Positions 13,595-41,087 of a DNA stretch of 64,000 bases are shown here, piece by piece. The translations under genes and the position numbers were made by a program. Each line of letters opens with the position of its first letter. Within the stretch, counting starts at the first letter, position 1. The stretch lies in NCBI GenBank assembly GCA_963835575.1, contig CAWIGG010000002.1, positions 1 through 64,000 on the forward strand, read 5' to 3'. The notes under the pieces are model-generated. The model was not told the DNA's origin. It saw only the letters and a list, made by a program, of their open reading frames with translations, and ran no database searches. Source of the stretch: an uncultured Spirochaetota bacterium. GTDB taxonomy: Bacteria > Spirochaetota > Brevinematia > Brevinematales > JAOACQ01.

Positions 13595-13691
13595 AACATG
13601 CCACCTGCCTTAAAATGTTTTGGGAATTTTAGTGTTTTGAAAAGTGGTAACATTTCGCCCGGAACCCCGGCACATTTCACCGGAATACGCA

Positions 13692-14560
13692 AAACTGTTG
13701 TTATCTGAAATAACGGAAGAATATAATATATATAAAGGAGGACAATCATCATAAAGTTTTAACCAATTATTAAATAATTGTTTAATATTTTGTTCAATAG
13801 AATAAAAATAAACAAAATAAAAAGTTTCAAATTTATAATAAGAACTGGATTCATTTTGTTTATTTCTATTATGAAGAAATACAATTTCATGCGGATATTT
13901 TTCATTATTTATAAAACCTGATAAAATATTTCTATTAATTTCTTTCCTTATAAAAAACTGAAAAAAAATTGAAGTCATATTAATGTACGAATCAAGTTGA
14001 TTTAATGTAATTCCTTCTTTTGCTTTAAAAACTATAAATGCTTTTTCTGTAATTTTAAATTCATAATACATCTGGATAATTAAGGGATAATACAATTTAA
14101 AAAGAATAAATATATGCATTTTAACATTATCTAAAATATCAATATTCTGTCTTTTATTATATTTTATTGTTATGTCAGTTTCATTTTCATCTTGGCTAAA
14201 TTTATTATTTTGTAATGTTAACCAATGATATAAATTATCACTTCTTATATATAATTCATTAAATAGGATATTTTCATCTTCAAGATGAGCGCCTAAATAA
14301 CCTTGATAACATTGATAAGTAACTGTTTCATATCCACTGTTTGAAAAAGTATTTTTAATTCTATAGCAATTGAATAAAGTAATTTTATCCCCATTATTTA
14401 AAAGACCATGTATTATTTTGAAATTAAAATCTTTGATAAAAGGTTGAAATCTGCCATTTAAATGAAGATTTAGGTTATCTGAAACTTCTAACTCTCCAGA
14501 AATTGTATTTTCAATGTTTTCAATAATCCACCACTTACCTAAATAAATTTCTTCTTCCAA
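13692..14560 (-). pseudogene. ApeA-N-terminal-domain-like protein truncated by IS21 (HEPN part missing)
   Basis: GKWW...ISGEL...IIHG...G.KITLFNC N-terminal pattern; frame runs into the IS end. Confidence 0.55.
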
Positions 14561-14642: not shown

Positions 14643-17624
14643 TCAACCTAAATAAATCTTCTCAACCATCTCATCAATCTTCTTTTCAAGAAATTCAGCG
14701 TCCTTTAAATGTTTTTCATCTTTCTTGAATTCTATAATCTGTTTGACCATTTCCTCAATCTTCTGACATAGAGCGAATTTTTCTTTATTCTGGTGATCAG
14801 GCAGATAAATAGGTAATTGTTTGATATATTTGTTTTCATAAGAGTAAAAACCGCCACGTAAAGCTGTTGAAATAGTTTTTAGAAATTTATCTATTAAAGA
14901 TGAGTTTAATAAGCCAAGCAGATAAAAATAGTTAATTTTAATTTCTTCTTTAAGCAAAATACCATAAGCACCGGAAACTCCGGCACTGAATATAAAATCC
15001 CCTTCAGAATCATAAGCAAATGAACTATGAAAAGCATTAAATGGAGTTAATATTTTATATTTATTTAAAATCTGCATATTTTGCGGGCGGCTGTATGACC
15101 ACCAAATTTTTTTAAATCTCCCTTCTTCTCTTTCCAATAAAATACTTTTATTTTCTTTTTCTGAAAGGTAACTATAAGCTAAAGGATACATATCTTCTAA
15201 GGTCTTTTCAGAAATCAATTTCCCAAGATTATCATAAGGAAATATGATATATTCATTGTTTCTTTCGATTGAATATCTTTTTATGTTTTTTCCTTTTACA
15301 TAAGGTTTTATAATATCTTTTTCAATATCAAATTCTTTTGATAAAGAAGATGAATAACATTTACATTTTTTGCTGCCATTTTCAATAAGTTTTACAATAA
15401 AAACTGGGTCTGCTCCTGCTTTAGGACCTTGAAATATATTTGTAGTTATATCTTCAAGAATAGGTTTATTTTTTCTTATTTTATCTAAAAAAGCTTCGTT
15501 TTCCGTATTTACAAAAATCCAATTTTCAGAGTTAATTTTATTAGAATCAACTCGATAAAAGCTTAAGCCATTATTTATTTCTTGTTCTATATTATCAACT
15601 TCGTTCTTAAATTCGAAATATTCAAAACTGTCTTTGTATTGACCGCTTAAAAAAAGAAGACATGTATATGTAGTTGCATTTTCAAACACTTGATTTATGC
15701 CAAAGTGCAGAATTTTATTGATGTTCTTCTTTTCAGAAATCAACTCTCTAACATTGAGGCCGTAATTAGAATTAAAAAACTTATGCGGGCAAATATAACC
15801 AACTAAACCGTCTGTCTTTAGCAATTCTAATGCTTTTTCAATGAATATGATATAAATATCAAAATTACCCTGACTGCCTGATTTATATAATTTCTTATAA
15901 AGCTCTGTGGCTTGTGGTTGAAAACTTTGCAATTCCTGGGTTTTTATATACGGAGGATTCCCTATAATACAGTCAAAGCCGCCTTTATTAAAAATATCTG
16001 AAAATTCTGTTTTCCAATCGAAAGGTTTAATGTCCTCCGCTCCAAACATATCATTGGAAAACAATTGCTCCCGGTCAATCAGCGAATTTCCGCACTTCAC
16101 ATTCGCCGTCATATCTGGCAGAATATGTCCTTTCATAAATAGCATTGCCTGGCCCTTGTCAAAGCCTTCGTCCAGTAGTTTTAAATAGAGGCTCATAATC
16201 GCCACTTCGGTGGCTTCCCTGTCGATATCCACGCCGAATATGTTGTTTTTAAGGATTCTGGCTTTTTTCTGCAAAGTAAGATGGATTTCACCGTCCGGGG
16301 TTTCAAAAAAGTCGTTTTTATAATTCTTCCGGACGGTTTTAGAAAGTCGGGAATAATAATCTTGATGGTATTTTATCAGATAATCAAAAGCCCCAAGCAG
16401 GAAACTGCCCGAACCACAGGCGGGGTCTAATATTTTAAGTTGTTCAATTTCTTCAGAGGTTTTACCTTTGATTTTCTCTCCTACTGTATTTTCGACTATG
16501 TATTTGACGATATATTCAGGAGTATAAAAAACACCACCAGCATGATTTACTTCTGGCTTCATTTCAACCTTTGCATGGTGATCTTCTGTTAACCGAATTT
16601 TTGAACCGAGAAATCTTTCATAAATTCGGCCCAATATTTCGGGCTCTATTTTATCAAACCTGAAAGGAGAAACTTCTGAACTCATACTTTTTATAATATC
16701 CTTTATGATTTTATTATCAATTTCAAGTTCTTCACTAAAATGTTTTTTGAAAAGAAGACCGTTATAATCAATATCGAATTTGCGGAATAAGGGAATTATG
16801 CATTTATAAAAATGCGCGTCCTCATCATCTTGGCGGTCAACAAGATTCATAAGAAGATTCTCATCCTCAATGTTTCTATCCTCAAGGTTCCTGATAAAGA
16901 CAAGACGATCAAGAATTCTTTGAACAGCTTCATTGATTTCATCGACGGTTAAGTTTTTATTTCTGTTAGCAACATTCCGGGCGAGTATTTCTCTCCAGTC
17001 AATAATATCATTTAAAAATTCATCATCTAATGTTTTTGTATTTCTTGAAACTTTTCCTGCAAGATTTTCAATACTACCGTCATAAACTGCTTCTTTTGAA
17101 AAGTTAGTCCAAATTATATCCCATTTATCTAAATAATCGGTATATTTTAAATCCAGTTCTTTAATTAATCCTTGCAGAGGATTTTCAAAACGTGGTCTTT
17201 CTAGGCCATTAAAAACCCGGAATTCCTGAAAGTCGGTGAGAATGACTATAGGGGCTTTACCATGAGATGAAAAGGCATACCTTTTAGCCTGAAAGACAGG
17301 TTTTGCGTCGGTAAGAGAAACCCACGGGGCTTTTGCTTCCACAAAGAATTTTTCTTTAAATTTATTGTTATCTTTTACTCTGAAAGCATAATCTGGTTTT
17401 TTTGTAGAAGAATCATCCCTCTGCGAAAATTCACGGTGAACATCCCAGACTTGACGGTTTAAATTGGTTTGTTCCAGTTCCCAACCAAGAGCGGTAAAAA
17501 GCGGGTCAATAAAACGGTTTCTGGTTTCTGTTTCCTGAAAAGCTTTTGAAAGATAAATACTTTCGTTTTTGTTAAAATCATCAACTTTTTGTTCAACTAA
17601 CAAAAGCCCCTCTTGTTTTTTCAT
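14643..17624 (-). CDS. Type IIG-like fused restriction-modification enzyme (N6-adenine MTase)
   Basis: KPDY...VEAK nuclease, ILDPACGSGSFL, IGNPPY, C-terminal TRD. Confidence 0.9.
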   Translation of the reverse strand: MKKQEGLLLVEQKVDDFNKNESIYLSKAFQETETRNRFIDPLFTALGWELEQTNLNRQVWDVHREFSQRDDSSTKKPDYAFRVKDNNKFKEKFFVEAKAPWVSLTDAKPVFQAKRYAFSSHGKAPIVILTDFQEFRVFNGLERPRFENPLQGLIKELDLKYTDYLDKWDIIWTNFSKEAVYDGSIENLAGKVSRNTKTLDDEFLNDIIDWREILARNVANRNKNLTVDEINEAVQRILDRLVFIRNLEDRNIEDENLLMNLVDRQDDEDAHFYKCIIPLFRKFDIDYNGLLFKKHFSEELEIDNKIIKDIIKSMSSEVSPFRFDKIEPEILGRIYERFLGSKIRLTEDHHAKVEMKPEVNHAGGVFYTPEYIVKYIVENTVGEKIKGKTSEEIEQLKILDPACGSGSFLLGAFDYLIKYHQDYYSRLSKTVRKNYKNDFFETPDGEIHLTLQKKARILKNNIFGVDIDREATEVAIMSLYLKLLDEGFDKGQAMLFMKGHILPDMTANVKCGNSLIDREQLFSNDMFGAEDIKPFDWKTEFSDIFNKGGFDCIIGNPPYIKTQELQSFQPQATELYKKLYKSGSQGNFDIYIIFIEKALELLKTDGLVGYICPHKFFNSNYGLNVRELISEKKNINKILHFGINQVFENATTYTCLLFLSGQYKDSFEYFEFKNEVDNIEQEINNGLSFYRVDSNKINSENWIFVNTENEAFLDKIRKNKPILEDITTNIFQGPKAGADPVFIVKLIENGSKKCKCYSSSLSKEFDIEKDIIKPYVKGKNIKRYSIERNNEYIIFPYDNLGKLISEKTLEDMYPLAYSYLSEKENKSILLEREEGRFKKIWWSYSRPQNMQILNKYKILTPFNAFHSSFAYDSEGDFIFSAGVSGAYGILLKEEIKINYFYLLGLLNSSLIDKFLKTISTALRGGFYSYENKYIKQLPIYLPDHQNKEKFALCQKIEEMVKQIIEFKKDEKHLKDAEFLEKKIDEMVEKIYLG

Positions 17625-17655
17625 TCGTTATTTCCTTTGGTTTATTTAGAGATTG

Positions 17656-17684
17656 ATTATACACCCCACGCCGTTTTCCGGCAA
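17656..17684 (-). promoter_or_regulatory. Cassette-borne sigma70 promoter
   Basis: TTGCCG-17-TATAAT upstream of the R-M gene. Confidence 0.7.
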
Positions 17685-17729
17685 GGATGCCGGAAAAATT
17701 TAATTACCAGCTTCGGCCCGGAAAATTTC

Positions 17730-17888
17730 GTACAACGGTGCGGCTATACGACGTTTTGCGGCCCGTAGGGTTGGCGTCTTTTTTGCATCCCACGCGCAAA
17801 AAAGATGACAAAGCAAAATGTGGGCGAAGCCCTGAGCACCGCCCGGAGCCGCGCGAGGACGGAGCGGAACGTATAGCCGTTGTTGTGC
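17730..17888 (-). repeat. attC-like site (159 bp)
   Basis: GTACAAC-GGT-GCGGCTATACG ... CGTATAGCCGT-T-GTTGTGC. Confidence 0.85.
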
Positions 17889-17952: not shown

Positions 17953-18504
17953 TTATTTCCCATAAACTATAGAAATTATAAAAGACACTATTAATACAAG
18001 ATAAGCTATAAAAAATATTTGAAAATTAAATTTTATCTTGAATAATAGCGAGTATTTTTTATTCATTTTATCTAAGTTTTCTTTGATAATATATTTGTAA
18101 TCAGCGACAATCGTATCAACAGCTTGAGCCTTTTTATTCTCAAGGTATAAATCAATAGCTTCATAATCATATTCTGTCAATGTAATTGGTTCAAGACCGT
18201 TTAATATTTCTTTAAAAAGTAATATAAAAGATATTCCTATCATTAGAGTACAAATAGAAATAAATGAAGATAATATTATATGTATGGTTAATACGTCAGG
18301 ACTCAATTTATCAAAGATGAAAACGTGTTTAATATTATTAATTTGTTCCTTAAAAATTAGTATTAATGTCGATAATAATATTGAAATAATTGTCAGATAA
18401 AAACTTATTTTTTGATTAAAACTCTGGTATCTATCCAAAATTCCATCATTTTTATATTTTAAATAACTTATCGGGTCAAATTTTATTTCTTTATTTTTTG
18501 CCAT
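17953..18504 (-). CDS. 3-TM membrane protein, topology reminiscent of Pycsar/DUF5706-type effectors
   Basis: Helix, two TM segments, soluble loop, N...KK helix, C-terminal TM; start overlaps the ligase stop. Confidence 0.6.
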   Translation of the reverse strand: MAKNKEIKFDPISYLKYKNDGILDRYQSFNQKISFYLTIISILLSTLILIFKEQINNIKHVFIFDKLSPDVLTIHIILSSFISICTLMIGISFILLFKEILNGLEPITLTEYDYEAIDLYLENKKAQAVDTIVADYKYIIKENLDKMNKKYSLLFKIKFNFQIFFIAYLVLIVSFIISIVYGK

Positions 18505-19426
18505 AAAAAAATTCCCCTATACTTTTACTGATATTGAGATTTAAAATTTCATCAATCCAAGCCCATTGACCATTAGGATTCAAGTCTAAAAAATAATAAT
18601 CACCTGTTTTGCTATAAATAAGATCCATTGAAGAAAAATTTAAGTTAAATTGTTCGACTATTTTCTTACACCTGACTTTTATTTCTTCTGGAAGTTCTAT
18701 TAAAGAATAAGGCACTGACAAACAATTATTTACCCGCCAATCTTCCTGAGTGTCTATATTGTTCTGAGAATCTATTTTAATTGCAAATAAGTCATTACCG
18801 ACTACAATTATTCTTAGCTCATATTCTTTTTCAATATATTCTTGTATCAATGCAGGGAAATTATTTACTAAAGTCAAATCATCGCTTTTCTCTAATTTAC
18901 TATTGTATGGTATAAAATTATTTCCGTTTATTTCGTGAACACCCAAATATAGTGGTTTTATACAATATGGTTTATCATTCTGGATGAAACTGACCAGTTC
19001 ATTATGGCTATTAGTAATGATGGTATCCGGCACATTGAAGCCAATTGTTTTAGCGGTTTTTAATTGTAGAATTTTATCTTCAGCTATCCTTGTATTGTTC
19101 GGGTGACTCATCCATTTAACATTTAGATTATTAATACTATATTCATAAAATAGTCTGGCTTCAATTGCTAATTCATCACTTAATGTTTGATTGTTTTCTA
19201 TATTTACTTTGGGATTAACAGGTCTTCGATATAAAATACCGGATAATTCATTGTTATTAATTCGGCACTGGTTTACTTTATTCTTAATAGTGAAATTATC
19301 TAAAGTATATTTTATTTCATAATCAGTTATAAAATTATCAGTATCGAAACGAAAAGATGGAACATTTAACCGGGAATTAAGATAATCAACTGTTTTATCT
19401 TCGGAATTAGTAATTATTAAAATCAT
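18491..19426 (-). CDS. ATP-grasp RiPP maturase (MvdC/MvdD/RimK-like)
   Basis: YRRP, AEDKILQL..A..IGF.VPDT.ITN, IKPL, QEYIEKEYELRI, DWR, LDLNPNGQWAW. Confidence 0.9.
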   Translation of the reverse strand: MILIITNSEDKTVDYLNSRLNVPSFRFDTDNFITDYEIKYTLDNFTIKNKVNQCRINNNELSGILYRRPVNPKVNIENNQTLSDELAIEARLFYEYSINNLNVKWMSHPNNTRIAEDKILQLKTAKTIGFNVPDTIITNSHNELVSFIQNDKPYCIKPLYLGVHEINGNNFIPYNSKLEKSDDLTLVNNFPALIQEYIEKEYELRIIVVGNDLFAIKIDSQNNIDTQEDWRVNNCLSVPYSLIELPEEIKVRCKKIVEQFNLNFSSMDLIYSKTGDYYFLDLNPNGQWAWIDEILNLNISKSIGEFFYGKK

Positions 19427-19707
19427 ATATTATCGCTATCGGTTTCTTCAATTCTTGTTTTAGTTATTGTTTGAGTGCCAAGATTGCTTAAATTATATAA
19501 TGCTGAAGGGTCTCTATCTGTTACTTCTGATTTAACATCAGTACATGTTTGAGTCCCTAAATTATTATTATGAGAATCATGAATTACTCGGTCTTTGTCA
19601 GTAGTTTCAGATTTAACTTCTGTAAAAGTTTGAGTGCCAAGAAAAATTTTATTACTCTGCCGAATCATTTTTGATTTTCTTAAAACTAAAATATCATTTA
19701 CTTTCAT
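19423..19707 (-). CDS. Tri-core graspetide (omega-ester peptide) precursor, 94 aa
   Basis: RBS GGAGGT; three LGTQTxTxxxxExTDxD repeats; ATGA overlap with the ligase. Confidence 0.85.
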   Translation of the reverse strand: MKVNDILVLRKSKMIRQSNKIFLGTQTFTEVKSETTDKDRVIHDSHNNNLGTQTCTDVKSEVTDRDPSALYNLSNLGTQTITKTRIEETDSDNI

Positions 19708-19753
19708 AAGTTTACCTCCCATTATAAAAAACATTTTACAAGCATCCACTTCC

Positions 19754-19956
19754 TCTCTCAAAGTTCCGGCTCCGACTCTAAAAGAATCCAATTACTCTCT
19801 TTTAGACCCGGTTTGGATTCTCAAAGAGTCTAATTACTCTCTCAAAGAGTCCAATTGGTTTCTAAAAGACCCGGCTTCGACTCTAAAAGAGTCTAATTGC
19901 TCTCTCAAAGAATCTAATTTGTTTCTTTAAGAATCGGACTGGTTTCTAAAAGAATC
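19754..19956. repeat. Degenerate 21-bp tandem repeat, about 10 units
   Basis: Units such as TCTCTCAAAGAGTCCAATTGG and ACTCTAAAAGAGTCTAATTGC at 21-bp period. Confidence 0.85.
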
Positions 19957-19974: not shown

Positions 19975-20007
19975 AAAATAAACAGGGGGAACCGCTAAGG
20001 CTCCCCC
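19975..20007 (-). terminator. Rho-independent terminator
   Basis: GGGGGAGCC-ttagc-GGTTCCCCC followed by T-rich tail on the minus strand. Confidence 0.75.
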
Positions 20008-20018
20008 ATCCATAACAT

Positions 20019-20513
20019 TTACTTCGCTTGTGTTGCTGCCGCATTTGCGGGTGTTCCTTTTGGTCTGCCGGGAAAACGGGCGGAAAGATCGTCATAAACA
20101 TTCTTTGCCCCTGAAATATTCGACTTTGCGGCACTTTTGGCGGCGTTATAAAGAATCAATGCGCCTGCGTAAGCTTCGCTTCCTGAAAGCAGCATTGTGT
20201 CGTTCAATGCGTCCGTAATCTGAGAAAGCGGCTGAAAAATAGAACGGATGGAAACCACTGCGTTAACATCGGTTTTAAATGCGTCCACATCAAGAAACGG
20301 CGGAACGATGTCAGCGTTAGATTTACAGTACTCCAACGCCTTCTGTACAAAGGGAACCGTTTTGTCGCCCATTTTGGGCATTTCATGCCGTTCATCGGCG
20401 GAAAGGGTTTTGAGGTTAGGCAAAAGTTTAGCTTTCAGAGTCGCAATTGCTGCCGTTACCTCGGCCATGTCACTTTCGGGTAGCTGGAATGAAACGAGAT
20501 TCTGTTGAGCCAT
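20019..20513 (-). CDS. Conserved-looking helical hypothetical protein (164 aa), in frame with the end of the KAP ORF
   Basis: Own RBS AAAGGAGG-ATG; GC-richer codon usage; KMGDK..FVQKA, DTMLLSGSEAY motifs. Confidence 0.7.
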   Translation of the reverse strand: MAQQNLVSFQLPESDMAEVTAAIATLKAKLLPNLKTLSADERHEMPKMGDKTVPFVQKALEYCKSNADIVPPFLDVDAFKTDVNAVVSIRSIFQPLSQITDALNDTMLLSGSEAYAGALILYNAAKSAAKSNISGAKNVYDDLSARFPGRPKGTPANAAATQAK

Positions 20514-23500
20514 TTTTTCCTCCTTTATAATTGGTGTCATTTTAACCTCCGTTATTACTAAGTTATTTTCTAAATTTATTGTAACTGGTTTATATTTTTT
20601 TAAGTTATCAATTATCTGCTCTAATGTTATCTCTTTTTTATTTAAACTCTTTATCAAATCAGAAGGAATGACTTCAGTATAATTTTGTTTTCTTATTTCA
20701 TCCTCAAAGAGAAGTTTATGTATTTTGTTAAATTTAAGATAAATATTATCTATTAGGCGATAATATTCATCAAAAGAGCTGATTAATTGTTTGTGTTTTA
20801 AATTATAAACTGCATCAATTGATATAATTAAAAGATCGGTAAAATTTTGAGGGTATGTTTTATAATTTTCAGGAATTTCACTATAAATATTCACAAAATA
20901 TTCATAAGCACTATTCAAAGATTCAAAAAGATTTGTTTCATCAATACAATGTTCCACATCCTTTTTAAAATATCCATTTAAAAGCCTACATAAACTTAAA
21001 ATTACATCATGAGATAGGCGGAGGTAGCTACCTTGATATTCATTCCATGTACTGTATGTAAAAGAAAATTTATTGTTTAATATAAAATTAAGACAATAAT
21101 TTATTTTTTCTTGTTCTAATTTTCTTTTTTCATCATTTATTGTTATACCTATTAATTCATATAAAAATAAAAGTAAAATTGATTTTATTTCTCGATTTTC
21201 AGTTTCTTCAAAATATTTTATTGTAAGACTAATTACTTCGTCAATTTGAACTTTAGTAAATTTACTATCATAATAAAAAATCATTTTTATAATCTCATTT
21301 ACTTTATGTGAATCAGACTTATAATATTTCGGGTCAACCTGATAAACAGGGAATATTTCCTTAATGAAACTAGAATTGATATATATCGAAGCCCAATCAG
21401 TAGAATAAAAGGACCTTGGTTGCCAGAGAAGTTTGCTCATAAAATCATCTGAGTCTCTATCAAATTTAATCTTACCTTCTGAGATATAATGAAGAGTCCC
21501 AAGTATCACTTTTTTTATTAAATCAAAATCCTTAAAATCATGCTCATTGCCTCCAACAATAGTATTATAAATCTTTTCAAAATAATTCATAATCAACACT
21601 TTATGTTCACGAGAACCGGGTAAACTATTGAATAGAACGATTTTTAATTTAAATAAGCTCATTGTTGCGTCTATACAATCTGTTTCTTGCAATTCTTTTA
21701 TTTTATTGATATGTTCATTAATCATTTTGTTACTAAACTCATATTTACGCAATATGGGATTAATATAATAAAGAATAGAATTTTTATTAAGAATGGAAAG
21801 ATCATCAATGACAAGACGTTTATCTTTAATACCTACTTTATCATTTGGAACTAATTCAAAACCGATTAACTCAAATATTTTGAATATCCGGTTAGATTTT
21901 GCATTTTTTAACATAAATATTTCATTATCTCTGGGTTTTAATAACAAATCTTTTAGATATTTAATAATTTCATTTTTTGTTCCCGCATATTCAGCATTAT
22001 CTAACGGATGATCCAATTCTTTTTTCATATGGTATAAAAAGTCGAAGTAAAACTCAACATTAATATTTTTCAAAGCACTCATCAAGAAAATATCTCTAGG
22101 AATTATTAAATCTATGATATGTGCGTTTTCTGTCAATTTCGTCATTTTCAGGATAGTTTGAAAGAAATCATTGAAAGTGAGTTTAACTTCTCTATATGAA
22201 TGAAATAAATCATATAATTCTCCATTGTCGATAAGAGAATCAAGCATCTTTATGATTTCTTCTTTGTCTTTATCGGCAATTTCAAACATCGTATTTTTAT
22301 TATTCAAATATTCTTTGATTCTGTTCCATTCTTCTTTTAAAAATTTTACTATTTCGTTTTGATTACCTTCTGTATTGATTTCAATTACTGTATTAAATAT
22401 TTTATAAATAAATGAAGAATCCGCTTCATTCATTACAGAGGATATGACTTTATTTACGATGTTGACATCCATTCCGGAAATGGAAACCACATTTTGGAAT
22501 CCAGTAATATACCGGATTGTTTTCAATAACGAAATACATTCTTGACTATCAATGACTCTATCAATATCATCAAATATGACAACAAGTTTTTTTTTATTTT
22601 GGTGCCTTAAGGCTATGAAAATTAATTCATTTATAGATTCTCGATCTATTTCAATGTTATTTTTTTTAATAAAAATATTAAACGATTTAGAAATGTCTTT
22701 AATCAATGTATTATCAGTGGCATTTACCAGCCATTCGAAATAATTATAAAAATCATCGGGAATAGTAATTATTGATTTCTTTAAAAAATTCAAAATACCC
22801 ATTTCTAGTTCTTTAATTATCTTTGTATGATCTTTTAACTTCCAAGCATTAATCCATAATACCTCATATTCATTTTTGTTTTTCAGCCTTTTACCCAATG
22901 TGTTTAATATGCTCGTTTTCCCAGAACCCCATTTCCCGTTTAGTAAAACGGAAAAATAATTTCGGTTTTTGTCTATTAGTGAAATAGTAGTTTCAAGTTG
23001 TTTAACATAAAAAAATTCAGAACTTTCTTCTGTAATTTCTTCTAATGGTTCATCATCAAATAGAAATGTATGATCATTATTTTTTTTCTTTGAAAGCGAT
23101 TTGATAGTTAAAAATATAAAATTTATTGTTAAACAAATAACCAAGATTAATTCTGGCATTGTCGAATATTGTTTATAATTATTATGCAAATAGTTTATAG
23201 GAAGTATAAAAGAATTTACTATAATAAATAACAACACAATATTAACGAATATCTGCATGAATTTTTTATGTACAAAGAATGTTTGTATAATTTTTCCGAT
23301 TTGGTTCCATTGTCTGTTAAACAGATTGTTTAAAAGAATCGATAAGATGCCGAATTGAACAAATATAAATGCGAAGTAAATGATTTCTTTAAAAGAGTGG
23401 TATTTACCAATGGCATTTAATAAGTCAGAGGGAATAAAAGATTTTTCAATATCATAAATACTGATTAATATATTTCTAATTCCTAATATATCAACAGAGA

Positions 23501-23585
23501 TAAATGATAATATTGTTAACAATAATAACAGCAAGAACAAAACGATGTCAAAAAGAATGGGCATTGTTTTTTTAAAACAAATCAA
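20019..23585 (-). CDS. KAP-family P-loop NTPase with N-terminal TM helices (read-through fusion at C-terminus)
   Basis: GKWGSGKTS Walker A, INAW, VVIFDDIDR Walker B. Confidence 0.8.
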   Translation of the reverse strand: MICFKKTMPILFDIVLFLLLLLLTILSFISVDILGIRNILISIYDIEKSFIPSDLLNAIGKYHSFKEIIYFAFIFVQFGILSILLNNLFNRQWNQIGKIIQTFFVHKKFMQIFVNIVLLFIIVNSFILPINYLHNNYKQYSTMPELILVICLTINFIFLTIKSLSKKKNNDHTFLFDDEPLEEITEESSEFFYVKQLETTISLIDKNRNYFSVLLNGKWGSGKTSILNTLGKRLKNKNEYEVLWINAWKLKDHTKIIKELEMGILNFLKKSIITIPDDFYNYFEWLVNATDNTLIKDISKSFNIFIKKNNIEIDRESINELIFIALRHQNKKKLVVIFDDIDRVIDSQECISLLKTIRYITGFQNVVSISGMDVNIVNKVISSVMNEADSSFIYKIFNTVIEINTEGNQNEIVKFLKEEWNRIKEYLNNKNTMFEIADKDKEEIIKMLDSLIDNGELYDLFHSYREVKLTFNDFFQTILKMTKLTENAHIIDLIIPRDIFLMSALKNINVEFYFDFLYHMKKELDHPLDNAEYAGTKNEIIKYLKDLLLKPRDNEIFMLKNAKSNRIFKIFELIGFELVPNDKVGIKDKRLVIDDLSILNKNSILYYINPILRKYEFSNKMINEHINKIKELQETDCIDATMSLFKLKIVLFNSLPGSREHKVLIMNYFEKIYNTIVGGNEHDFKDFDLIKKVILGTLHYISEGKIKFDRDSDDFMSKLLWQPRSFYSTDWASIYINSSFIKEIFPVYQVDPKYYKSDSHKVNEIIKMIFYYDSKFTKVQIDEVISLTIKYFEETENREIKSILLLFLYELIGITINDEKRKLEQEKINYCLNFILNNKFSFTYSTWNEYQGSYLRLSHDVILSLCRLLNGYFKKDVEHCIDETNLFESLNSAYEYFVNIYSEIPENYKTYPQNFTDLLIISIDAVYNLKHKQLISSFDEYYRLIDNIYLKFNKIHKLLFEDEIRKQNYTEVIPSDLIKSLNKKEITLEQIIDNLKKYKPVTINLENNLVITEVKMTPIIKEEKMAQQNLVSFQLPESDMAEVTAAIATLKAKLLPNLKTLSADERHEMPKMGDKTVPFVQKALEYCKSNADIVPPFLDVDAFKTDVNAVVSIRSIFQPLSQITDALNDTMLLSGSEAYAGALILYNAAKSAAKSNISGAKNVYDDLSARFPGRPKGTPANAAATQAK

Positions 23586-26401
23586 ACCTTTGCCTCCACC
23601 ATGTTAATTTCTTCCTCTGTCAGTCCATATAACTCATAAACCAGTTTATCAATCTTTCTATCCAGAATTTCAATTTGCTGGTTTGATAATGCTATATCCT
23701 GTTCGGTTTTGGCGGCTTGAAGACCTTTTTTTGCGGTTATTATTTTATCAGTCAATTCGATCAATTTATCTTGACTTTGAATAGTATTTTCAAGAACAGG
23801 GAAAGGTAATGCTAAAACATCCTTGATAGTTACCTGGGGAAAATCATCTTTAGTGGCTTGTGTAACTTGTTTTAGATATAAAAATGATAAAAGTTTGCTG
23901 TTTAAAATAGCCAATAATACTTTAATATCCAATTTTGATTCACTTTTTAATATAACAGAGTATAAATTCTTATTAGTAATGAAAGACTCCATTACAATCA
24001 TGGACATTAGCCTTTGCTGGCGGTTAACAAGTCTACGCAATAATATTCTATTTGAAGTAAACCAGAAAATTTCTTTTGGTCTTTCTTTCATTTTATCATT
24101 AAATTCAACCCATTGATCTGCTTTTATATTAATTGCATATCTATAAACATCACCTTCAAAATATTTGTAAGAAATATCCGAAAGCTTTGTTTGGGTTAAT
24201 AATGTTTTGCTAAATAAAACACCTCTTTTTATTAATGTGATATCATTTAAAGTAAATTGGGTATTTCGTTTTATTGATTCAATAAGATTATTAGCACCAG
24301 ACTCGAAAATAAATTTTAAATCATTATTATTGCGCCAAACATTTTGATTAATCTTATTGTAATCTAATAATTCAATTTCTTTTATCTTTGATTTTTTTGG
24401 ATATTCAAATGTTCTTACATAATTAACTGATTGAAATATTTTGTTTCTAACTTTGAAAATTAGCGTATCAATATATGCATCAGAAAAGACATTAAAAGGA
24501 AGTAAAATTAAAACATCTATTTCATAATTTAATAGAAAATCTCTCAATTCTTTATATTTTGGGCCACCTGTCCATGCAGAGGGAACAATAAAAGAAATTA
24601 ATCCTTTTTGTTTTAACAAGCTAAAACTATTCTGGATAAAACTAATATAGACATCTTTTATTTTAGAAAATATTGAATATTTCTTAGATAAATATTTGTC
24701 CTCACTTTCTTTAAACCAAGCACCATACGGTGGGTTACCAATTAAACAATCAAAGCCACCACTTTTTATTATTTCCGAAAATTGCTTTTCCCAATCAAAA
24801 GCATTTATAGACCTTATTGTTTCTTTATCAAAAAGGTTATTTTCATTTTCAAAAAAGTCGCTTCCGATCAGAGAATTACCGCACTTAATATTATTAGAAA
24901 GGTTTGGAAGATATTTTAAATCGCTATGTTTAAAAAGTAAACCTGCGCTTTCAGTGCTTTCATTTTCCATCAGTTTCAGAAGTAATGACAATTTTGTTAC
25001 TTCAACAGCCTGCGGGTCTATATCCACACCGTAAATATTATTGAGAAGGATTTTTTGCTTTTCCTGAATGGTAAGATGGTAATGCTTTTCGTTCAATTGG
25101 TAAATACGCCCTTCTTTCAGGGCTTTTTTCAACTGCTTTTCTTCAATATAGAAACTCAAATGATAATTTAAAAGATAAGTATAAGCTCCAATTAGAAATG
25201 AACCGGAACCACAAGCGGGATCGAGAACTTTTATTTTTTCTATTTCAGATGGTAATAACCCTTTTATTTTTTCACCGACAGTATTTTCAACTATATAATT
25301 AACTATATATCGGGGTGTATAAAAAACACCACCAGCTTTCTGTACTTCCGGCTTTTTCTCTATTCTTACTTGATGGGTTGGAGTTAACCGGATAGTTTCA
25401 CCAAGAAATTGTTCATAAATATTGCCAAGAACTTCAATCGGCAAAACGGAAAATTCATAAGGACAATCGGGATAATACATTTCTGTAATAATTGTTTTTA
25501 AAATATTGTCATCAATATTTAGATTGATTAAGAAATCATCTATCTTAAAAAGGTCGCTGTTATATTTATCATTGCCTTTAATAAAAAGCTTGTTTAGTTC
25601 CTGATAAGCATTTTTTCTATGAACCGCTTCAAATAAAAGGGCGTATTCTTCTGTCCCTCTATCTTCAGCAATCCGCAGGAATATAATTCTGTCCATAATC
25701 TTCTGAACTGCATAATTAAGCTGGTAAACATCGTCAAGGTTTAAATTTCTGATTGATATATTATTAGCAAGAGTTTGACGCCACTCGGATATGAGTTTTA
25801 AAAATTCCTTATCTACTTCGGAAGAACCTTTTTTGCTCTTATTGTCTTCAATGTAACGGTCAAAGCTGCCTTTGAGTATGGCGTTTTTTGAAAATGTATT
25901 AGTGATAAATTCAAAATGTTTTTCATAATCTTCAAAAGTGCAATAGAATATTCTGGCTACACTTGCTTTATCTGTTTTGTCGGGTTTAATGCGTGTGTCA
26001 TAAACGGCGATTTCTTCAAAATCAGTCAAAATGGATAATGGTAACTTTGCTGTGTAAGCATAACGTCTGATTTGATAAGCCGGGTCAATGTCCTCTTTAA
26101 TGTTGACGGAAGGTTTTTTAGCTTCAACGAAAAATTTACGGGTTCCGCCAATCCTGAAAGAATAATCAGGGGCTTTTGGTTTTCCTTGAATAACAACTTT
26201 ATCTTCTCTTACTACTTCCCGGTAATCTTCTGAATATTCTTGGGTATTGCGTACATCCCAATCAAGAAGCTCGAAGAATTTATCAATAAAATCAACTCTA
26301 GTATTCGCTTCATCGTAAGAAAGGCTTTTATATTGTTTGATATTCGTTTTAAAATGTTCTACTAATTGCTTTAATTTCATAAGTTTTTCATTCATTTCCA
26401 T
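23582..26401 (-). CDS. Type IIG-like fused restriction-modification enzyme
   Basis: APDY...VEAKKP, VLDPACGSGSFL, IGNPPY, TaqI-C-like TRD. Confidence 0.9.
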   Translation of the reverse strand: MEMNEKLMKLKQLVEHFKTNIKQYKSLSYDEANTRVDFIDKFFELLDWDVRNTQEYSEDYREVVREDKVVIQGKPKAPDYSFRIGGTRKFFVEAKKPSVNIKEDIDPAYQIRRYAYTAKLPLSILTDFEEIAVYDTRIKPDKTDKASVARIFYCTFEDYEKHFEFITNTFSKNAILKGSFDRYIEDNKSKKGSSEVDKEFLKLISEWRQTLANNISIRNLNLDDVYQLNYAVQKIMDRIIFLRIAEDRGTEEYALLFEAVHRKNAYQELNKLFIKGNDKYNSDLFKIDDFLINLNIDDNILKTIITEMYYPDCPYEFSVLPIEVLGNIYEQFLGETIRLTPTHQVRIEKKPEVQKAGGVFYTPRYIVNYIVENTVGEKIKGLLPSEIEKIKVLDPACGSGSFLIGAYTYLLNYHLSFYIEEKQLKKALKEGRIYQLNEKHYHLTIQEKQKILLNNIYGVDIDPQAVEVTKLSLLLKLMENESTESAGLLFKHSDLKYLPNLSNNIKCGNSLIGSDFFENENNLFDKETIRSINAFDWEKQFSEIIKSGGFDCLIGNPPYGAWFKESEDKYLSKKYSIFSKIKDVYISFIQNSFSLLKQKGLISFIVPSAWTGGPKYKELRDFLLNYEIDVLILLPFNVFSDAYIDTLIFKVRNKIFQSVNYVRTFEYPKKSKIKEIELLDYNKINQNVWRNNNDLKFIFESGANNLIESIKRNTQFTLNDITLIKRGVLFSKTLLTQTKLSDISYKYFEGDVYRYAINIKADQWVEFNDKMKERPKEIFWFTSNRILLRRLVNRQQRLMSMIVMESFITNKNLYSVILKSESKLDIKVLLAILNSKLLSFLYLKQVTQATKDDFPQVTIKDVLALPFPVLENTIQSQDKLIELTDKIITAKKGLQAAKTEQDIALSNQQIEILDRKIDKLVYELYGLTEEEINMVEAKV

Positions 26402-26430
26402 CGTCGTATCCTTTGTTTATTTAAAAAGAG

Positions 26431-26459
26431 ATTATACACCTTACGCCGTTTTCCGGCAA
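26431..26459 (-). promoter_or_regulatory. Cassette-borne sigma70 promoter
   Basis: TTGCCG-17-TATAAT; leader nearly identical to 17656-17736. Confidence 0.7.
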
Positions 26460-26504
26460 GGATGCCGGAAAAATTTAAGAACCAGCTTCGGCCCGGAAAA
26501 TTTC

Positions 26505-31512: not shown

Positions 31513-34467
31513 ATGACAAGAAAGGAAGGGCTTTTAATAGTTGAACAAAAAGTTGAGGATTTTCAAAAAGGTGAGGCTGGTTTTTTATTAAAGTCATTTC
31601 AAGAAACGGAAACCAGAGATCGCTTTATCGACCCATTTTTTGAAGCCCTTGGGTGGGAAATGAAGCAGACTGGTGTATCGCGTCAATACTGGGATGTTCA
31701 TCGTGAATTTTCACTGAAAGATGATTCCTCTACAAAAAAACCGGATTATGCTTTCAGAGTAAAAGATATAGGTGTGCCTCACGATAAATTTAAAGAAAAA
31801 TTCTTTGTGGAAGCAAAAGCCCCGTGGGTTTCTCTTACCGACGCAAAACCTGTCTTTCAGGCTAAAAGGTATGCCTTTTCATCTCATGGTAAAGCCCCTA
31901 TAGCCATTCTCACAGACTTTCAGGAATTCCGGGTTTTTAATGGTCTTGAAAGACCACGTTTTGAAAATCCTCTGCAAGGATTAATTAAAGAACTGGATTT
32001 AAAATATACCGATTATTTAGCCAAGTGGGAAATACTTTGGGCTAACTTTTCAAAAGAAGCCGTTTATGACGGAAGTATTGAAAACCTCGCTGGAAAAGTT
32101 TCCAGAAACACAAAAACATTAGACGATGAATTTTTAAATGATATTATTGAATGGCGAGAAACGCTCGCCCGGAATGTCGCTATCCGAAATAAAAACTTAT
32201 CCGTCGATGAAATAAATGAAGCTGTTCAAAGAATTCTTGACCGTCTTGTCTTTATCAGAAATCTTGAGGACAGAAACATTGAAGATGAGAATCTTCTTAT
32301 GAATCTTGTTGACCGCCAGGATTATGAGGACGCGCATTTTTATAAATGCATAATTCCCTTATTTCGCAAATTCGATATTGATTATAACGGCCTTCTTTTT
32401 AAAAAGCATTTCAGCGAAGAATTGGAGATTGATAATAAAATCATCAAGGATATTATTAAAAGTATGAGTTCAGAAGTTTCTCCTTTCCGGTTTGATATAA
32501 TTGAACCTGAAATATTAGGGCATATTTATGAGCGCTTTCTCGGTTCAAAAATCCGGTTGACTGAAGATCACCGGGCTAAAGTTGAAATGAAACCGGAAGT
32601 GAATCATGCCGGCGGTGTTTTTTATACTCCTGAATATATCGTCAAATACATTGTTGAAAATACTGTAGGTGAAAAAGTAAAAGATAAAACACCGGAAGAA
32701 ATCGAACAACTCAAAATATTAGACCCGGCTTGCGGTTCGGGTAGTTTCTTACTCGGAGCTTTTGATTATCTGATAAAATACCATCAGGATTATTACTCTA
32801 AACTTTCCAAGACCGCCCGGAAAAAATACAAAGATTACTTTTTTGAAACCCCTGACGGTGAAATCCGGCTGACTTTGCAGAAGAAAGGCCGAATCCTCAA
32901 AAATAATATTTTCGGCGTGGATATCGACCGTGAAGCTACTGAAGTATCTATTATGAGCCTATATTTAAAACTTCTAGACGAAGGCTTTGACAAAGGGCAA
33001 GCATTACTATTTATGCGAGGGCATATTTTGCCGGATATGACAGCCAATATTAAATGTGGAAATAGTTTGATTGACCGTGAGCAATTATTTTCTAATGACC
33101 TTTTCGGTGATGAAGATATTAAACCTTTTGATTGGGATACTGAATTTTGGATAGGTGGCTTTGACTGTATTATCGGCAATCCTCCGTATATCAGAATTCA
33201 GGAAATGCAAAAATGGGCGCCTAAAACAGTTTCTATTTACAAAAATATATATAAATCCGGCAGTTCAAATAATTTTGATATTTTCGTGTTATTCCTTGAA
33301 AAAGCCTTGATGCTTTTGAATCAAAAAGGGCTTTACGGTTTTATCGTACCAAACAAATTTATGCAGCAGGAATATGGTCAAAATATTCGAGAAATATTAA
33401 GCAGTGGAAAGCATATATTTCAGATCATTAATTTTAAAGATTTTCAGGTCTTTAAAAACGCTACTACTTATACTTCTCTAGTTTTTGCCTCAAAAAACCC
33501 AAACATTTCATTTAACTATGCTGAGGTCAAGAACGAATTGGTTAACTTTCATCTTACACAAAAAGACTTTTCTTCTATTACAGCAGATCCCTGGCTTCTA
33601 CATGATGAAAAAGATGAATTGTTAATTAAATCTCTGTCAAAATACCCTATCCTTGCCGATCTGTCCACCAATATCTTTGTCGGTGTTCAGACCAGTGCTG
33701 ATAAAATATTTATTCTTGATTTCATTGAAGAAAAGGAAAACTCCTATGTTCTTTATTCAAAATCTGTTGAACGTCAGATTGAATTGGAAAAGACTTATGT
33801 AAAACATGTTATCAGCGGTCTGGATGTAAAACGTTATTTAATTCCGCCAAAAAGACAATATATTATTTTTCCTTATAAGATTGAGAACGAAAAAGCAATT
33901 CTACTTTCTAAAGCCGATCTGGAAAACAACAGCCCGAAACTGTGGGAATATTTATTTGAAAACAAAAAAGTCCTTGAAGATAGGGAGAATGGACGTTTAA
34001 AAGGCAAAGGCTGGTATGGTTACATATACCTAAAAAATATGTCTTTACAAGATAAACCTAAATTATGTGTGCCTCGTTTAGTACAGAAAATTCAATGCAC
34101 TTTTGATGCTAATGGTTCTTATTGTCTTGATAATGTGGATGTCGGCGGAGTTATACTTAAAGAAGAATACAATCATTTATATTATTATATTATGGGGCTT
34201 TTGAATTCTTCCCTGCTCAGTTTTTATCTAACCAAAATAAGCACACCATTTCGGGGTGGCTTTTGGTCGTGTAATAAGCAATATCTTGAAAAACTGCCAA
34301 TTTATCTTCATTACCCGCAAGATAAAGATAAGTATGCTCTCTGTCAGAAGATTGAAGAAATGGTTAAACAGATTATAGAACTCAAGAAAGATGAAAAACG
34401 TTTGAAGGATGCTGAATTTCTTGAAAGAAAGATTGATGAGATGGTTGAGAAAATTTATTTGGAGTGA
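31513..34467 (+). CDS. Type IIG-like fused restriction-modification enzyme, paralog of 14643-17624
   Basis: Near-identical REase/MTase part and C-terminal helix, different TRD. Confidence 0.9.
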   Translation: MTRKEGLLIVEQKVEDFQKGEAGFLLKSFQETETRDRFIDPFFEALGWEMKQTGVSRQYWDVHREFSLKDDSSTKKPDYAFRVKDIGVPHDKFKEKFFVEAKAPWVSLTDAKPVFQAKRYAFSSHGKAPIAILTDFQEFRVFNGLERPRFENPLQGLIKELDLKYTDYLAKWEILWANFSKEAVYDGSIENLAGKVSRNTKTLDDEFLNDIIEWRETLARNVAIRNKNLSVDEINEAVQRILDRLVFIRNLEDRNIEDENLLMNLVDRQDYEDAHFYKCIIPLFRKFDIDYNGLLFKKHFSEELEIDNKIIKDIIKSMSSEVSPFRFDIIEPEILGHIYERFLGSKIRLTEDHRAKVEMKPEVNHAGGVFYTPEYIVKYIVENTVGEKVKDKTPEEIEQLKILDPACGSGSFLLGAFDYLIKYHQDYYSKLSKTARKKYKDYFFETPDGEIRLTLQKKGRILKNNIFGVDIDREATEVSIMSLYLKLLDEGFDKGQALLFMRGHILPDMTANIKCGNSLIDREQLFSNDLFGDEDIKPFDWDTEFWIGGFDCIIGNPPYIRIQEMQKWAPKTVSIYKNIYKSGSSNNFDIFVLFLEKALMLLNQKGLYGFIVPNKFMQQEYGQNIREILSSGKHIFQIINFKDFQVFKNATTYTSLVFASKNPNISFNYAEVKNELVNFHLTQKDFSSITADPWLLHDEKDELLIKSLSKYPILADLSTNIFVGVQTSADKIFILDFIEEKENSYVLYSKSVERQIELEKTYVKHVISGLDVKRYLIPPKRQYIIFPYKIENEKAILLSKADLENNSPKLWEYLFENKKVLEDRENGRLKGKGWYGYIYLKNMSLQDKPKLCVPRLVQKIQCTFDANGSYCLDNVDVGGVILKEEYNHLYYYIMGLLNSSLLSFYLTKISTPFRGGFWSCNKQYLEKLPIYLHYPQDKDKYALCQKIEEMVKQIIELKKDEKRLKDAEFLERKIDEMVEKIYLE

Positions 34468-34500: not shown

Positions 34501-35736
34501 ATGAATGGAAAAAAAAACGATCAAAACGATTTTATCTGTTATATAGGTAATAAGAAAGAAATATCCTTAGAGAAAATACGCTTAAGAATAAAAAATTATC
34601 TGGAACTGGATAATGTTAGTATTCTTGCCGGTGCAGGTACAAGTTTTCATATTGGCGCGCCTATAATAAGAGTAATTCCAAAAGAAATAAATGACTCATT
34701 ATTAAGCGATAAAGAAATAAAAGATTTTTACAAAATTAAAATAGATGAAATCAGTAAAGATAAAAATAACAACAAGGGTATATCTCTCGAAGATTTTCTC
34801 AATTATTTACAGGCAGATAGATTTTGTGCAATAACAAGATCAGAAGACATAACTAATTATGACATTTTAATTAAAAAAATTCAAAGTGAATTATTTTTAC
34901 GATGTAATACTCAGAATACAAACTTACATAATGATTACAAAGAAGATTCTAATTTAAAGGAAAATAGATATTTTTATCATGAGAAATTAATCAAAAAAAT
35001 ACTCCTAAGACCAATTAATCTGAGACGTGTCAATCTTTTTACTTCTAATTATGATTTGGCTTTTGAATATAGTTTTGATAATACAGGAATATATTATATA
35101 AATGGTTTTTCTGGTTTTCAGAGACGATTTTTTCATCCTGAATCCTATGATTATGACGTTTATTATCCTGGTCAAACTACAAGCGGAAAAGTGCATCGTG
35201 CTGAAAAAGTTTTACGTTATTATAAATTACATGGTTCTTTATCTTGGATTTTTACTGAACAAAATGCAAGAAATTTATATGGAATTGAAGAAATTTATAT
35301 TGATAAAAAACCAGAAAACGAATTAGTAATATATCCATGTGTAACAAAAAAAAGATTTACTCTCGATTTGCCTTATTCCGAATTATTCAGACATTTCTCA
35401 AATTCTATTAAACTAAACCAGTCAGTATTGTTTTGTATTGGTTATTCTTTTAATGACGAACATATAAATGATATAATCTATCAGGCTCTTTCAATTCCTT
35501 CTTTTACTCTTTTTGTAATTGATTATAAAGCTACGGATAATAAAGAAATTAATAAATTAAAATCTCTCAATGATCCACGTATTTTAATAATTGAAGGTAA
35601 ATATGCGAAATTCACTAAATTTGTTACTGATGTTTTACCTGATATATATGATGAAAAAGATGAAATCAAGATTACTGAAACAATGAATAAATTATATAAT
35701 ACTGATAATAATGATGAGGAAATTTCAGATGTCTGA
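34501..35736 (+). CDS. SIR2-like NADase of Sir2-HerA defence system
   Basis: LAGAGTS, FTSNYD, KLHGSLSW, IGYSFNDEHIN. Confidence 0.9.
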   Translation: MNGKKNDQNDFICYIGNKKEISLEKIRLRIKNYLELDNVSILAGAGTSFHIGAPIIRVIPKEINDSLLSDKEIKDFYKIKIDEISKDKNNNKGISLEDFLNYLQADRFCAITRSEDITNYDILIKKIQSELFLRCNTQNTNLHNDYKEDSNLKENRYFYHEKLIKKILLRPINLRRVNLFTSNYDLAFEYSFDNTGIYYINGFSGFQRRFFHPESYDYDVYYPGQTTSGKVHRAEKVLRYYKLHGSLSWIFTEQNARNLYGIEEIYIDKKPENELVIYPCVTKKRFTLDLPYSELFRHFSNSIKLNQSVLFCIGYSFNDEHINDIIYQALSIPSFTLFVIDYKATDNKEINKLKSLNDPRILIIEGKYAKFTKFVTDVLPDIYDEKDEIKITETMNKLYNTDNNDEEISDV

Positions 35737-40159: not shown

Positions 40160-40708
40160 ATGATTAGTTATAAATTTAATGAAACAAAAGCAATTCAGTT
40201 AATCGCTTTTCTTCTTAAGCAAGATAATACAAAAGATTATAATAATTATACAAAAATTATCAAACTTTTATACTTGGCAGATAGAGAAGCATTAAATAGG
40301 TGGGGAAGATCAATAACAAAAGATATTTATGCAAATCTTCCAGCGGGGCCGATTGTAAGTGAAACTTATGATTTAATTAAGGAAATGAAAAAAGGGGCTA
40401 ATGAATTTATTTGTTCTAAAAATGAATATGATTTGGCATTAGTAAGTGATCCTGGTGATGATGAATTAAGTAATGCAGAAATTAAGCTACTTAGAGAAAT
40501 ATCTGAAAAATATAAGGATAAAACATATCAAAAAATGGTTGATGAGGTTCATCGTCTTCCTGAATGGGTTGATCCAAGACCTAGAGGGAAAAAATCATTA
40601 TCAGTTGAAAATATTTTAGAAGTGTTAAATAAAACAGATGATGAAATTAAAGAAATTGAAGTATCAAACAAAGAAGAAAACTATATAATTAATGTCTTAG
40701 GTTTATAA
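40160..40708 (+). CDS. Panacea (DUF4065/SocA-like) antitoxin
   Basis: KIIKLLYLADRE.L..WGRSIT.D.Y..LP.GP, H.LPEW.DP. Confidence 0.8.
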   Translation: MISYKFNETKAIQLIAFLLKQDNTKDYNNYTKIIKLLYLADREALNRWGRSITKDIYANLPAGPIVSETYDLIKEMKKGANEFICSKNEYDLALVSDPGDDELSNAEIKLLREISEKYKDKTYQKMVDEVHRLPEWVDPRPRGKKSLSVENILEVLNKTDDEIKEIEVSNKEENYIINVLGL

Positions 40709-40709
40709 G

Positions 40710-41087
40710 ATGAAAAAAGGGGGGACATTCTACGGCAACCCAGAAGGAGCCTCTCAACCCCATCTACACTGTATAATTACAGACTCATCCGAGCATAAAG
40801 AAAAAGGTAAATGTCTTTTTGTTCATATGATTTCATATAATGAAGGTAATCCGTATTCAGACCGTTCTTGTATTTTAAATAAAGGTGATCACCCATTTAT
40901 TACACGTCCAACTTGCATAAATTATGCTGCTGCAACGGAAATAGATTTAGAGAATCTTGAATTTGCTGTTAGTCGATGTTTGTGTGAAGAAAATGCCCCT
41001 CTATCCTTAGAAATCTTAGAGAGAATACGTGAAGGGGCAAGACTTTCTGATCATTTACCTAGAAAATATAAATACTTATTCGAATAA
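40710..41087 (+). CDS. Probable toxin paired with Panacea antitoxin (PemK/MazF-like fold suspected)
   Basis: Starts 1 bp after the antitoxin stop; HL..II, D.SC.L.KGDHPFI motif. Confidence 0.55.
   Translation: MKKGGTFYGNPEGASQPHLHCIITDSSEHKEKGKCLFVHMISYNEGNPYSDRSCILNKGDHPFITRPTCINYAAATEIDLENLEFAVSRCLCEENAPLSLEILERIREGARLSDHLPRKYKYLFE

Follow-up and report, generated by a model that had tools for sequence, protein, structure and literature searches.

The 64,000-nt stretch of Spirochaetota DNA analysed here, referred to as the window, carries three tightly packed genes on its minus strand (positions 17953–19707, the triad) that encode a graspetide precursor, an MvdD/MdnC-type ATP-grasp peptide ligase and a three-helix membrane (TM) protein. 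The precursor (19423..19707, 94 aa) comprises a short leader (MKVNDILVLRKSKMI...) followed by three cores of the form LGTQTxTxxxxExTDxD. Its stop codon overlaps the start of the ligase gene (18491..19426, 311 aa) in an ATGA element, bases 19423–19426 reading tcat on the plus strand, and the end of the ligase gene overlaps by 14 nt the gene of the TM protein (17953..18504, 183 aa), a divergent member of a family that follows such ligases. The flanks of the triad in the window contain no protease, transporter or tailoring gene, and no protease or ABC (ATP-binding cassette) exporter recurs among 150 flank open reading frames (ORFs) of its relatives. A search with the ligase found the triad as a single copy in the genome, a 4.39-Mb assembly of seven contigs. 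Among public sequencing runs no RNA data set containing this genome was listed, and in the DNA data sets its share is small. An earlier note on this DNA had described the same three genes with their ATGA coupling and overlapping ligase stop, the three cores and the lack of protease, transporter and tailoring genes; coordinates, sequences and flank scans agree with that description.

The precursor ATG at 19707 is preceded at a distance of 8 nt by GGAGG and the reading frame closes at 19423, while a mechanical ORF list gives an alternative start, a TTG at 19791, with a product of 122 aa. Each of the three cores displays the pattern T-x-T-x-T-x4-E-x2-D-x-D. Alignment of eight precursors from different loci reveals that T25, T27, T29, E34, D37 and D39 are invariant, as is Asn-4 (N4) of the leader, and the repeat is therefore not a product of chance. 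In the relatives the precursors contain from 3 to 7 regular-expression matches to the core pattern. The window precursor has no match in Pfam, NCBIfam or PADLOC. It lies adjacent to the ligase gene, contains a leader and positions hydroxyl donors ahead of acidic acceptors, the arrangement that defines a graspetide precursor.

The ligase passes the Pfam cut-offs for ATPgraspMvdD (PF21068, 37.2 bits, cut-off 27) and RimK (PF08443, 31.1 bits, cut-off 21), as a peptide ligase of the MvdD/MdnC type should. Matches to the NCBIfam graspetide maturase models range from 7.8e-57 to 1.3e-30, all under the curated cut-offs; TIGR04187, at 7.8e-57, reaches 192.8 bits, yet its curated subfamily cut-off is 350. 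No PADLOC model matches the ligase. The enzyme is 37–39% identical to seven relatives, with which it shares invariant QEYIEKEYE.R and NPNGQW motifs. A quick tree recovers a clade of 27 ligases with 99% support, all of them either TM-linked or too short for judging. In the same tree the window ligase forms a long branch (1.37) within an unresolved group that also contains phage-borne ligases and the ligase of a thuringinin-like locus, L103.

Relatives of the triad were collected from species-representative genomes (21 loci), metagenomes (80) and viral contigs (21). Linkage to the TM gene was counted where the ligase reached 345 bits or more against a profile made from the window ligase and seven of its relatives and where the sequence continued for at least 887 nt downstream. 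At all 26 qualifying loci, the window included, a TM-family gene lies directly 3' of the ligase gene, usually overlapping it; four further loci, which stop within 600 nt of the ligase, stand outside the count. Judged by this gene order, the TM gene constantly accompanies this ligase clade, and the conservation of the TM gene, proposed as a check in the earlier note, is thereby borne out. The two proteins also occur as one polypeptide. P0123 is a 482-aa ligase::TM fusion with the TM part at the ligase C-terminus, from a 90% cluster of 20 sequences, and 14 of the 15 listed members of the cluster, from several independent assemblies, are 482 aa long, which indicates that the fusion is natural. 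Such a fusion implies a cytoplasmic N-terminus for the TM part and ties both proteins together. The closest relatives of the window triad are found in Bacteroidota and in Leptospira phage-like elements.

The TM protein contains three hydrophobic segments (Kyte-Doolittle count), and its AlphaFold2 model (mean predicted local distance difference test score, pLDDT, 78.2) consists of helices 11–61, 69–104, 114–123 and 127–182. The window protein has a single close homologue (57% identity) and is 12–25% identical to other family members; a hidden Markov model (HMM) built without it fails to recover it at E<=0.01. Its membership of the family is nevertheless indicated by the comparison of the window protein and its close homologue with six relatives (hhalign 87.1%, E 4e-6, 137 columns), by the shared gene position and ligase overlap, and by the conservation of R25, K32, Y114, K150 and L154. 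These residues, together with F161, are near-invariant throughout the family and are located outside the hydrophobic segments. At E<=1e-3 the family numbers 656 cluster representatives, a count that falls to 209 at 1e-10 and to 84 at 1e-30. Neither Pfam (searched with 8 and with 136 members), NCBIfam nor PADLOC returned a direct family match, the hits being weak generic membrane matches to DUF2207_C, DUF3784, HemJ, MreD, SLATT_1 (best 0.055) and 8xMP (3.3). The 8xMP lead was abandoned, with a match of 3.3 and a literature on 8xMP that returned unrelated work only. A Foldseek search of the model against the PDB, also proposed in the earlier note, gave nothing at E<=0.001, a wide VIA-align search returned only generic long-helix bundles with a best Z of 11.8, where values below about 13 are uninformative for helical models, and the sequence itself found no match in the PDB.

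A remote relation of the TM family emerged to PycTM (PF18967), which has been described as a membrane pore former that is activated by cyclic pyrimidines in abortive infection. In the ESM Atlas the window protein lies near a rank-3 cluster (score 0.92) in which 10% of members carry PycTM. Comparison of a 160-sequence alignment of the TM family with 20 PF18967 ORFs from genomes of the window's phylum gave hhalign 88.4% (E 2.8e-6) over 152 collinear columns, while reversal of either alignment gave 0.3–0.4% and ten shuffles in 20-column blocks gave 2.8–11.6% over at most 42 columns. With broader alignments, consisting of 136 TM-family members and 80 proteins named 'Pycsar system effector family protein' by NCBI, the values were 91.4%, E 9e-7 and 151 columns. 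The near-invariant residues of the two families align, namely E/D-x-K in the N-terminal helix and K-x3-L-x2-[AS]-x-R-x-F ahead of the last helix. When the TM-family HMM was run on the 80 PycTM proteins, 62 of them outscored every one of 80 reversed decoys (top 32.0 vs 5.6 bits, median 12.8 vs -2.0). The reverse search is weak: the PycTM HMM places 10 of 160 TM-family proteins above the best decoy, and the window protein obtains -8.9 bits from the HMM built on the 80 PycTM proteins. Direct searches gave no match to PF18967 for eight family members at E<=10, with 136 members at E<=1 it does not rank among the 25 families matched most often, and neither the NCBIfam Pycsar models nor PADLOC matched the family directly. 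On these profile data the TM family is a probable, not a certain, superfamily-level homologue of PycTM.

No nucleotide cyclase is present among the scanned window genes or the relatives' 150 flank ORFs, and the triad is therefore not a Pycsar system. Of the 'Pycsar-like membrane effector' named in the earlier note there remains the remote homology to PF18967, which holds at the level of the family. PF18967 genes that appear to stand alone, with products of 173–204 aa that NCBI names as Pycsar effectors, were found in 33 of the 401 genomes scanned from the window's phylum; a single family of 75 genomes accounts for 28 of these. Since such genes are common as stand-alone genes in that family (28/75), the fold need not mean suicide. 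No published link between a graspetide membrane partner and PycTM was found in the open literature, subscription journals and bioRxiv supplements not being covered, and the Nucleic Acids Research paper on PycTM makes no mention of ATP-grasp. Published work that connects ATP-grasp enzymes of ribosomal peptides with defence islands concerns another type of cluster.

Triads with the same TM family (hhalign 95–97%) are present in the Leptospira phage record KF114876 and in viral contigs. Those of three viral contigs (L130, L133 and L134) adjoin baseplate, tail-fibre and P2-like tail genes, an integrase and a CII-like gene. By the nature of these neighbours, triads are cargo in tailed prophages. 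Near-identical ligases (branch lengths up to 0.03) are found in different flanks at L056, L058/L059 and L060, which suggests that the triad has recently moved as one block. The neighbours of these near-identical triads include a transglutaminase-like gene; SH3, SIR2-HerA, AbiH and integrase genes; and a HipA-like gene with a type I restriction subunit. The distribution of the triad is patchy: a scan of 401 genomes from the window's phylum recovered it in 4, and four genomes of the window's genus lacked it.

The relation of the triad to defence genes was assessed in its flanks, where 150 of the relatives' 162 ORFs (the 12 shortest were dropped) were scanned with Pfam and PADLOC, and in a control of 150 flank ORFs from 15 other ATP-grasp loci, which came from the same genome scans and were subjected to the same procedure. 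A non-generic PADLOC defence match lies within 7 kb at 10 of 22 non-redundant triad loci, the window being counted, and the types found are type IIG, II and I restriction-modification (R-M), KAP/PifA-like, caspase with TIR, SIR2-HerA, PDC-M68, PDC-M66A and ApeA; one further locus displays a Pfam MmeI_N match only. The control loci yield four clear and three doubtful cases among 15 within the same distance (p 0.31–1.0 against the triads), and for any PADLOC match at E<=1e-8 they are at least as rich as the triads (10/15). The difference is still not significant when ABC-ATPase and helix-turn-helix matches are set aside. Defence genes abut the triad (<=350 bp) at 6 of 22 loci and at none of the 15 controls (p=0.06), a borderline comparison with a post-hoc threshold and non-independent loci. 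Defence enrichment, which the earlier note had wished to see checked, is thus not demonstrated for the triad, with 10/22 against 4–7/15 within 7 kb not significantly above the control. The defence-island setting that the note described is confirmed for the window, and the same setting recurs in relatives.

Individual loci resemble the window closely. L004 repeats its order of triad, type IIG R-M gene (same PADLOC model) and ApeA family, and L054 repeats the order of KAP NTPase and triad, the two abutting. A conserved KAP-triad module was considered and rejected, the KAP proteins of the window and L054 being 22% identical over the P-loop region. Pairs of a caspase-like gene and a ThsB-type TIR gene lie 63 bp from the triad in L003 (L003:2533-3889) and 4.3 kb from it in L051 (L051:16002-17380); a pairing of this kind is described as type IV Thoeris in a 2026 paper.

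In the window the triad sits inside an AT-rich block with 25–30% G+C, against 44–54% at the right-hand end of the window. The block from 13.6 to 47.7 kb contains ApeA/PDC-S58, three type IIG R-M genes, a KAP NTPase, SIR2-HerA, a SocA-like antitoxin and PDC-S11, along with a Phage_CRI-like Rep, insertion sequence (IS) elements and two integrases. Pfam and PADLOC matches agree that the triad shares its cassette with a type IIG R-M enzyme and a KAP NTPase, as had been noted earlier. Upstream of the triad, the KAP-family P-loop NTPase (20019..23585, minus strand) has an N-terminal membrane region, matches PF07693 at 2.3e-21 as well as the PADLOC PifA and QatA models, and overlaps by 4 nt the upstream type IIG R-M gene (23582-26401). 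The last ~180 codons of this 1188-aa ORF (20019-20560) resemble an independent soluble protein attached in frame, and G+C is 36% at 20001–21000 vs 25–27% upstream; the 3' part may have arisen by gene fusion or by loss of a stop codon where two cassettes meet. A terminator-like hairpin (19985..20007, minus strand) of nine pairs, seven of them G-C, followed by a T run, is positioned directly 3' of the KAP stop and parts the upstream unit from the triad. On the triad side, a promoter-like site (19733..19761, minus strand) composed of TTGAGA, a 17-nt spacer and TAAAAT lies 26 nt 5' of the precursor ATG; it is a consensus match only (10/12), of a kind found 21 times in the region vs 12.1 expected. 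With its own promoter-like site and a preceding terminator-like hairpin, the triad looks like a separate transcription unit. Between hairpin and promoter-like site extends a 21-nt array (19776..19956) of approximately 7–8 imperfect units, which may alternatively be read as 42- or 63-nt units. This array was rejected as a feature of the triad family, 27 other upstream regions containing no comparable multi-copy array and five of them short repeats of ~2 copies.

Downstream of the triad lies a type IIG R-M gene (14643..17624, minus strand; PADLOC PDLC03604, 4.8e-226), and the same PADLOC model identifies its two paralogues, the type IIG R-M genes at 23582..26401 and 31513..34467. The genes at 14643–17624 and 31513–34467 are inverted repeats of each other, with 77–88% identity over most of their length, and the 14 kb between the inverted copies hold the triad, the KAP gene, the second R-M gene, an integrase and a Rep-like gene; such an arrangement could permit inversion or specificity shuffling. 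A GC-rich repeat element (17637..17885) separates the TM gene from the R-M gene and has further copies at 26412-26536 and 42026-42273, with pieces 61–96% identical. Two copies are located just 5' of type IIG R-M genes and one just 5' of a DDE transposase gene (42361-43860), and the element is probably an IS end or a miniature inverted-repeat transposable element. The same island also contains an ApeA N-terminal domain protein (13610..14560, minus strand; PADLOC candidate PDC-S58), a SIR2-HerA pair (34501..37852), a SocA/Panacea-domain antitoxin followed by a small ORF (40160..41087) and a PDC-S11 candidate (44014..45054).

The locus can be read as a self-contained graspetide operon of three genes in the thuringinin/plesiocin layout, borne as cargo by a mobile AT-rich defence island and working as a peptide assembly line in which the ligase is docked by its PycTM-like partner, through which the multi-core peptide also leaves; the operon assignment and the mechanism form one proposal, to which we give an even chance. 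In this mechanism the ligase would bind the leader and, at the expense of ATP, form omega-ester rings from Thr to Asp/Glu, at most three in each core and roughly nine over the whole precursor. The TM protein, with its N-terminus and conserved helices in the cytoplasm, would dock the ligase at the membrane and oligomerise into a gated pore, through which the multi-core peptide would leave uncut, so that no leader protease would be needed. Outside the cell the peptide may serve as a multi-headed protease inhibitor or as another conflict molecule. Translational coupling and the ligase::TM fusion favour docking and exit, as far as gene arrangement can tell, over a pore gated by the peptide.

Several observations weigh against the assembly line. 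A three-helix protein would be an odd exporter for a 94-aa cross-linked peptide, and the only detectable relatives outside the TM family are Pycsar death effectors and not transporters. Members of the TM family exist without any ligase (L107 and L109), and the window leader has about half the length of the leaders of Bacteroidota relatives. The position of the triads as cargo in defence islands and prophages fits a role in immunity at least as well. Moreover, the TM protein of L103 is only weakly similar to the window family (31.6%), so that the statements in print may concern another membrane family. Effector homology and cargo positions together appear to favour abortive infection.

Abortive infection gated by the peptide, a ribosomal-peptide analogue of Pycsar in which the ligase would substitute for the cyclase, and the macrocyclised cores for the cyclic nucleotide, is a possible reading that we advance tentatively. 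The pore would be assembled or opened by the multivalent peptide on the cytoplasmic helices, or by loss of the peptide upon host shut-off by the phage, and the cell would die before phage release. It draws on the profile homology between the TM family and PycTM (88.4% and 91.4%, with low controls) and on the published role of PycTM as a pore in abortive infection. The window island, with its three type IIG R-M genes, KAP NTPase, ApeA/PDC-S58, SIR2-HerA, PDC-S11 and SocA-like antitoxin, is consistent with it, and so are the abutting defence genes (6/22 vs 0/15), the carriage in tailed prophages and the patchy occurrence (4/401 and 0/4). Against this, Pfam, NCBIfam and PADLOC give no direct PycTM match and the window protein scores -8.9 bits; the 7-kb defence counts are not significant, and the abutment (p 0.06) is a post-hoc figure from non-independent loci. 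Stand-alone PF18967 genes are common (28 of 75 genomes in one family), and tight coupling and fusion suit an assembly line better than a signal that is kept apart from its effector. Furthermore, the characterised graspetides are all described as protease inhibitors (Makarova et al. 2022).

This same property would suit an inhibitor that stays inside the cell, a membrane-tethered peptide that blocks a phage maturation protease or restrains a neighbouring protease-type effector. The lack of signal peptide and exporter and the caspase-like and TIR pairs near the L003 and L051 triads point in that direction; a protease neighbour is found, however, in only 2 of 22 loci, the strictly conserved PycTM-like protein would have no role and no target protease is identifiable, which makes this reading improbable. 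An addiction module, in which a short-lived modified peptide would act as antidote to a PycTM-like membrane toxin and stabilise the island or prophage with no role against phages, is slightly less probable still: mobile or foreign DNA carries the triad in every case, near-identical ligases occur in different flanks and a family fragment in L108 adjoins an apparent HicA/HicB-like pair (judged by eye from the translation), but ATP-consuming three-ring chemistry on 3–7 cores is elaborate for an antidote and stand-alone TM-family members occur without antidote genes.

If abortive infection were the true function, clusters of thuringinin and plesiocin type with this membrane partner would be immune modules and not pathways for secreted inhibitors. 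In the published accounts consulted the membrane protein of such clusters has so far been of 'unknown function' or 'probably transport', and the link to PycTM provides the first concrete handle that can be tested. It raises the question whether a whole branch of clusters for ribosomally synthesised and post-translationally modified peptides, often located in defence islands and prophages, is part of the conflict between phage and host rather than a source of secreted natural products.

Among known systems, a precursor with one ligase and an unassigned membrane protein, without protease or ABC exporter, has been published for the clusters of thuringinin, a group 3 graspetide of Bacillus thuringiensis with omega-esters, and of plesiocin, and the triad displays this layout. 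Makarova et al. 2022 propose transport as the role of an uncharacterised membrane family ('cluster 18') that is specific to thuringinin loci lacking transport systems. They report multi-core precursors with a shared leader, their precursor cluster 13 corresponding to groups 3, 5 and 6, and state that every characterised graspetide is a protease inhibitor. The window TM family may correspond to cluster 18, which it resembles as a membrane family beside multi-core graspetide loci. The words 'defense' and 'restriction' are absent from the main text of that paper, in which Pycsar was not looked for, and its supplement contains none of the relatives' loci and one Mucilaginibacter entry, which belongs to another branch. 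The thuringinin-like locus L103 (B. thuringiensis plasmid pHS18-2, L103:5668-8326) likewise combines a three-TM protein with a multi-core precursor, in this case of four cores. In contrast to the order precursor-ligase-TM of the window, its genes follow the order ligase-TM-precursor; its core spacing is TTxxTxxxENxDxDE-like and that of the window TxTxTx4Ex2DxD. The L103 ligase owes its sole annotation, 'PH domain-containing protein', to an additional domain at the N-terminus, and the TM protein of this locus, of 361 aa, shows a weak relation to the window family (hhalign 31.6%, E 5e-4, 76 columns). For plesiocin, Lee et al. reportedly describe the core motif TTxxxxEE. This group 2 graspetide, compared by description only, has the same layout in print with another core motif, and its psnA2 precursor is said to lie distal from the cluster.

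The microviridin pathway (MdnA-E) resembles the triad in its leader-guided ATP-grasp macrocyclisation. It is also said to involve a membrane protein scaffold. Published microviridin pathways possess two ligases, an acetyltransferase, an ABC transporter/protease and single-core TxKxPSD precursors; the triad, in contrast, has one ligase and a multi-core precursor and contains neither acetyltransferase nor ABC transporter/protease. With Pycsar the triad shares the location in defence islands and a small membrane partner built from the same succession of elements (N-terminal helix, two TM helices, helical insert, last TM helix). It differs in that it has no cyclase, the partner being a peptide ligase with its own encoded substrate, so that no nucleotide signal is implied, and in that none of the PF18967, NCBIfam and PADLOC models recognises its TM protein. 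The suggestion that the locus may constitute a new immunity system is thus only partly upheld: the defence-island setting and the lack of PADLOC matches for the three proteins were found, the first speaking for it and the second against, and the architecture was already in print. The roles that the note put forward for the peptide, namely intracellular action, protease inhibition, sensing and an antitoxin function, are conjectural. The layout of the triad is not new. What is new here is the strict linkage of ligase and TM protein, the natural ligase::TM fusion, the remote relation to PycTM and the carriage as cargo in tailed prophages.

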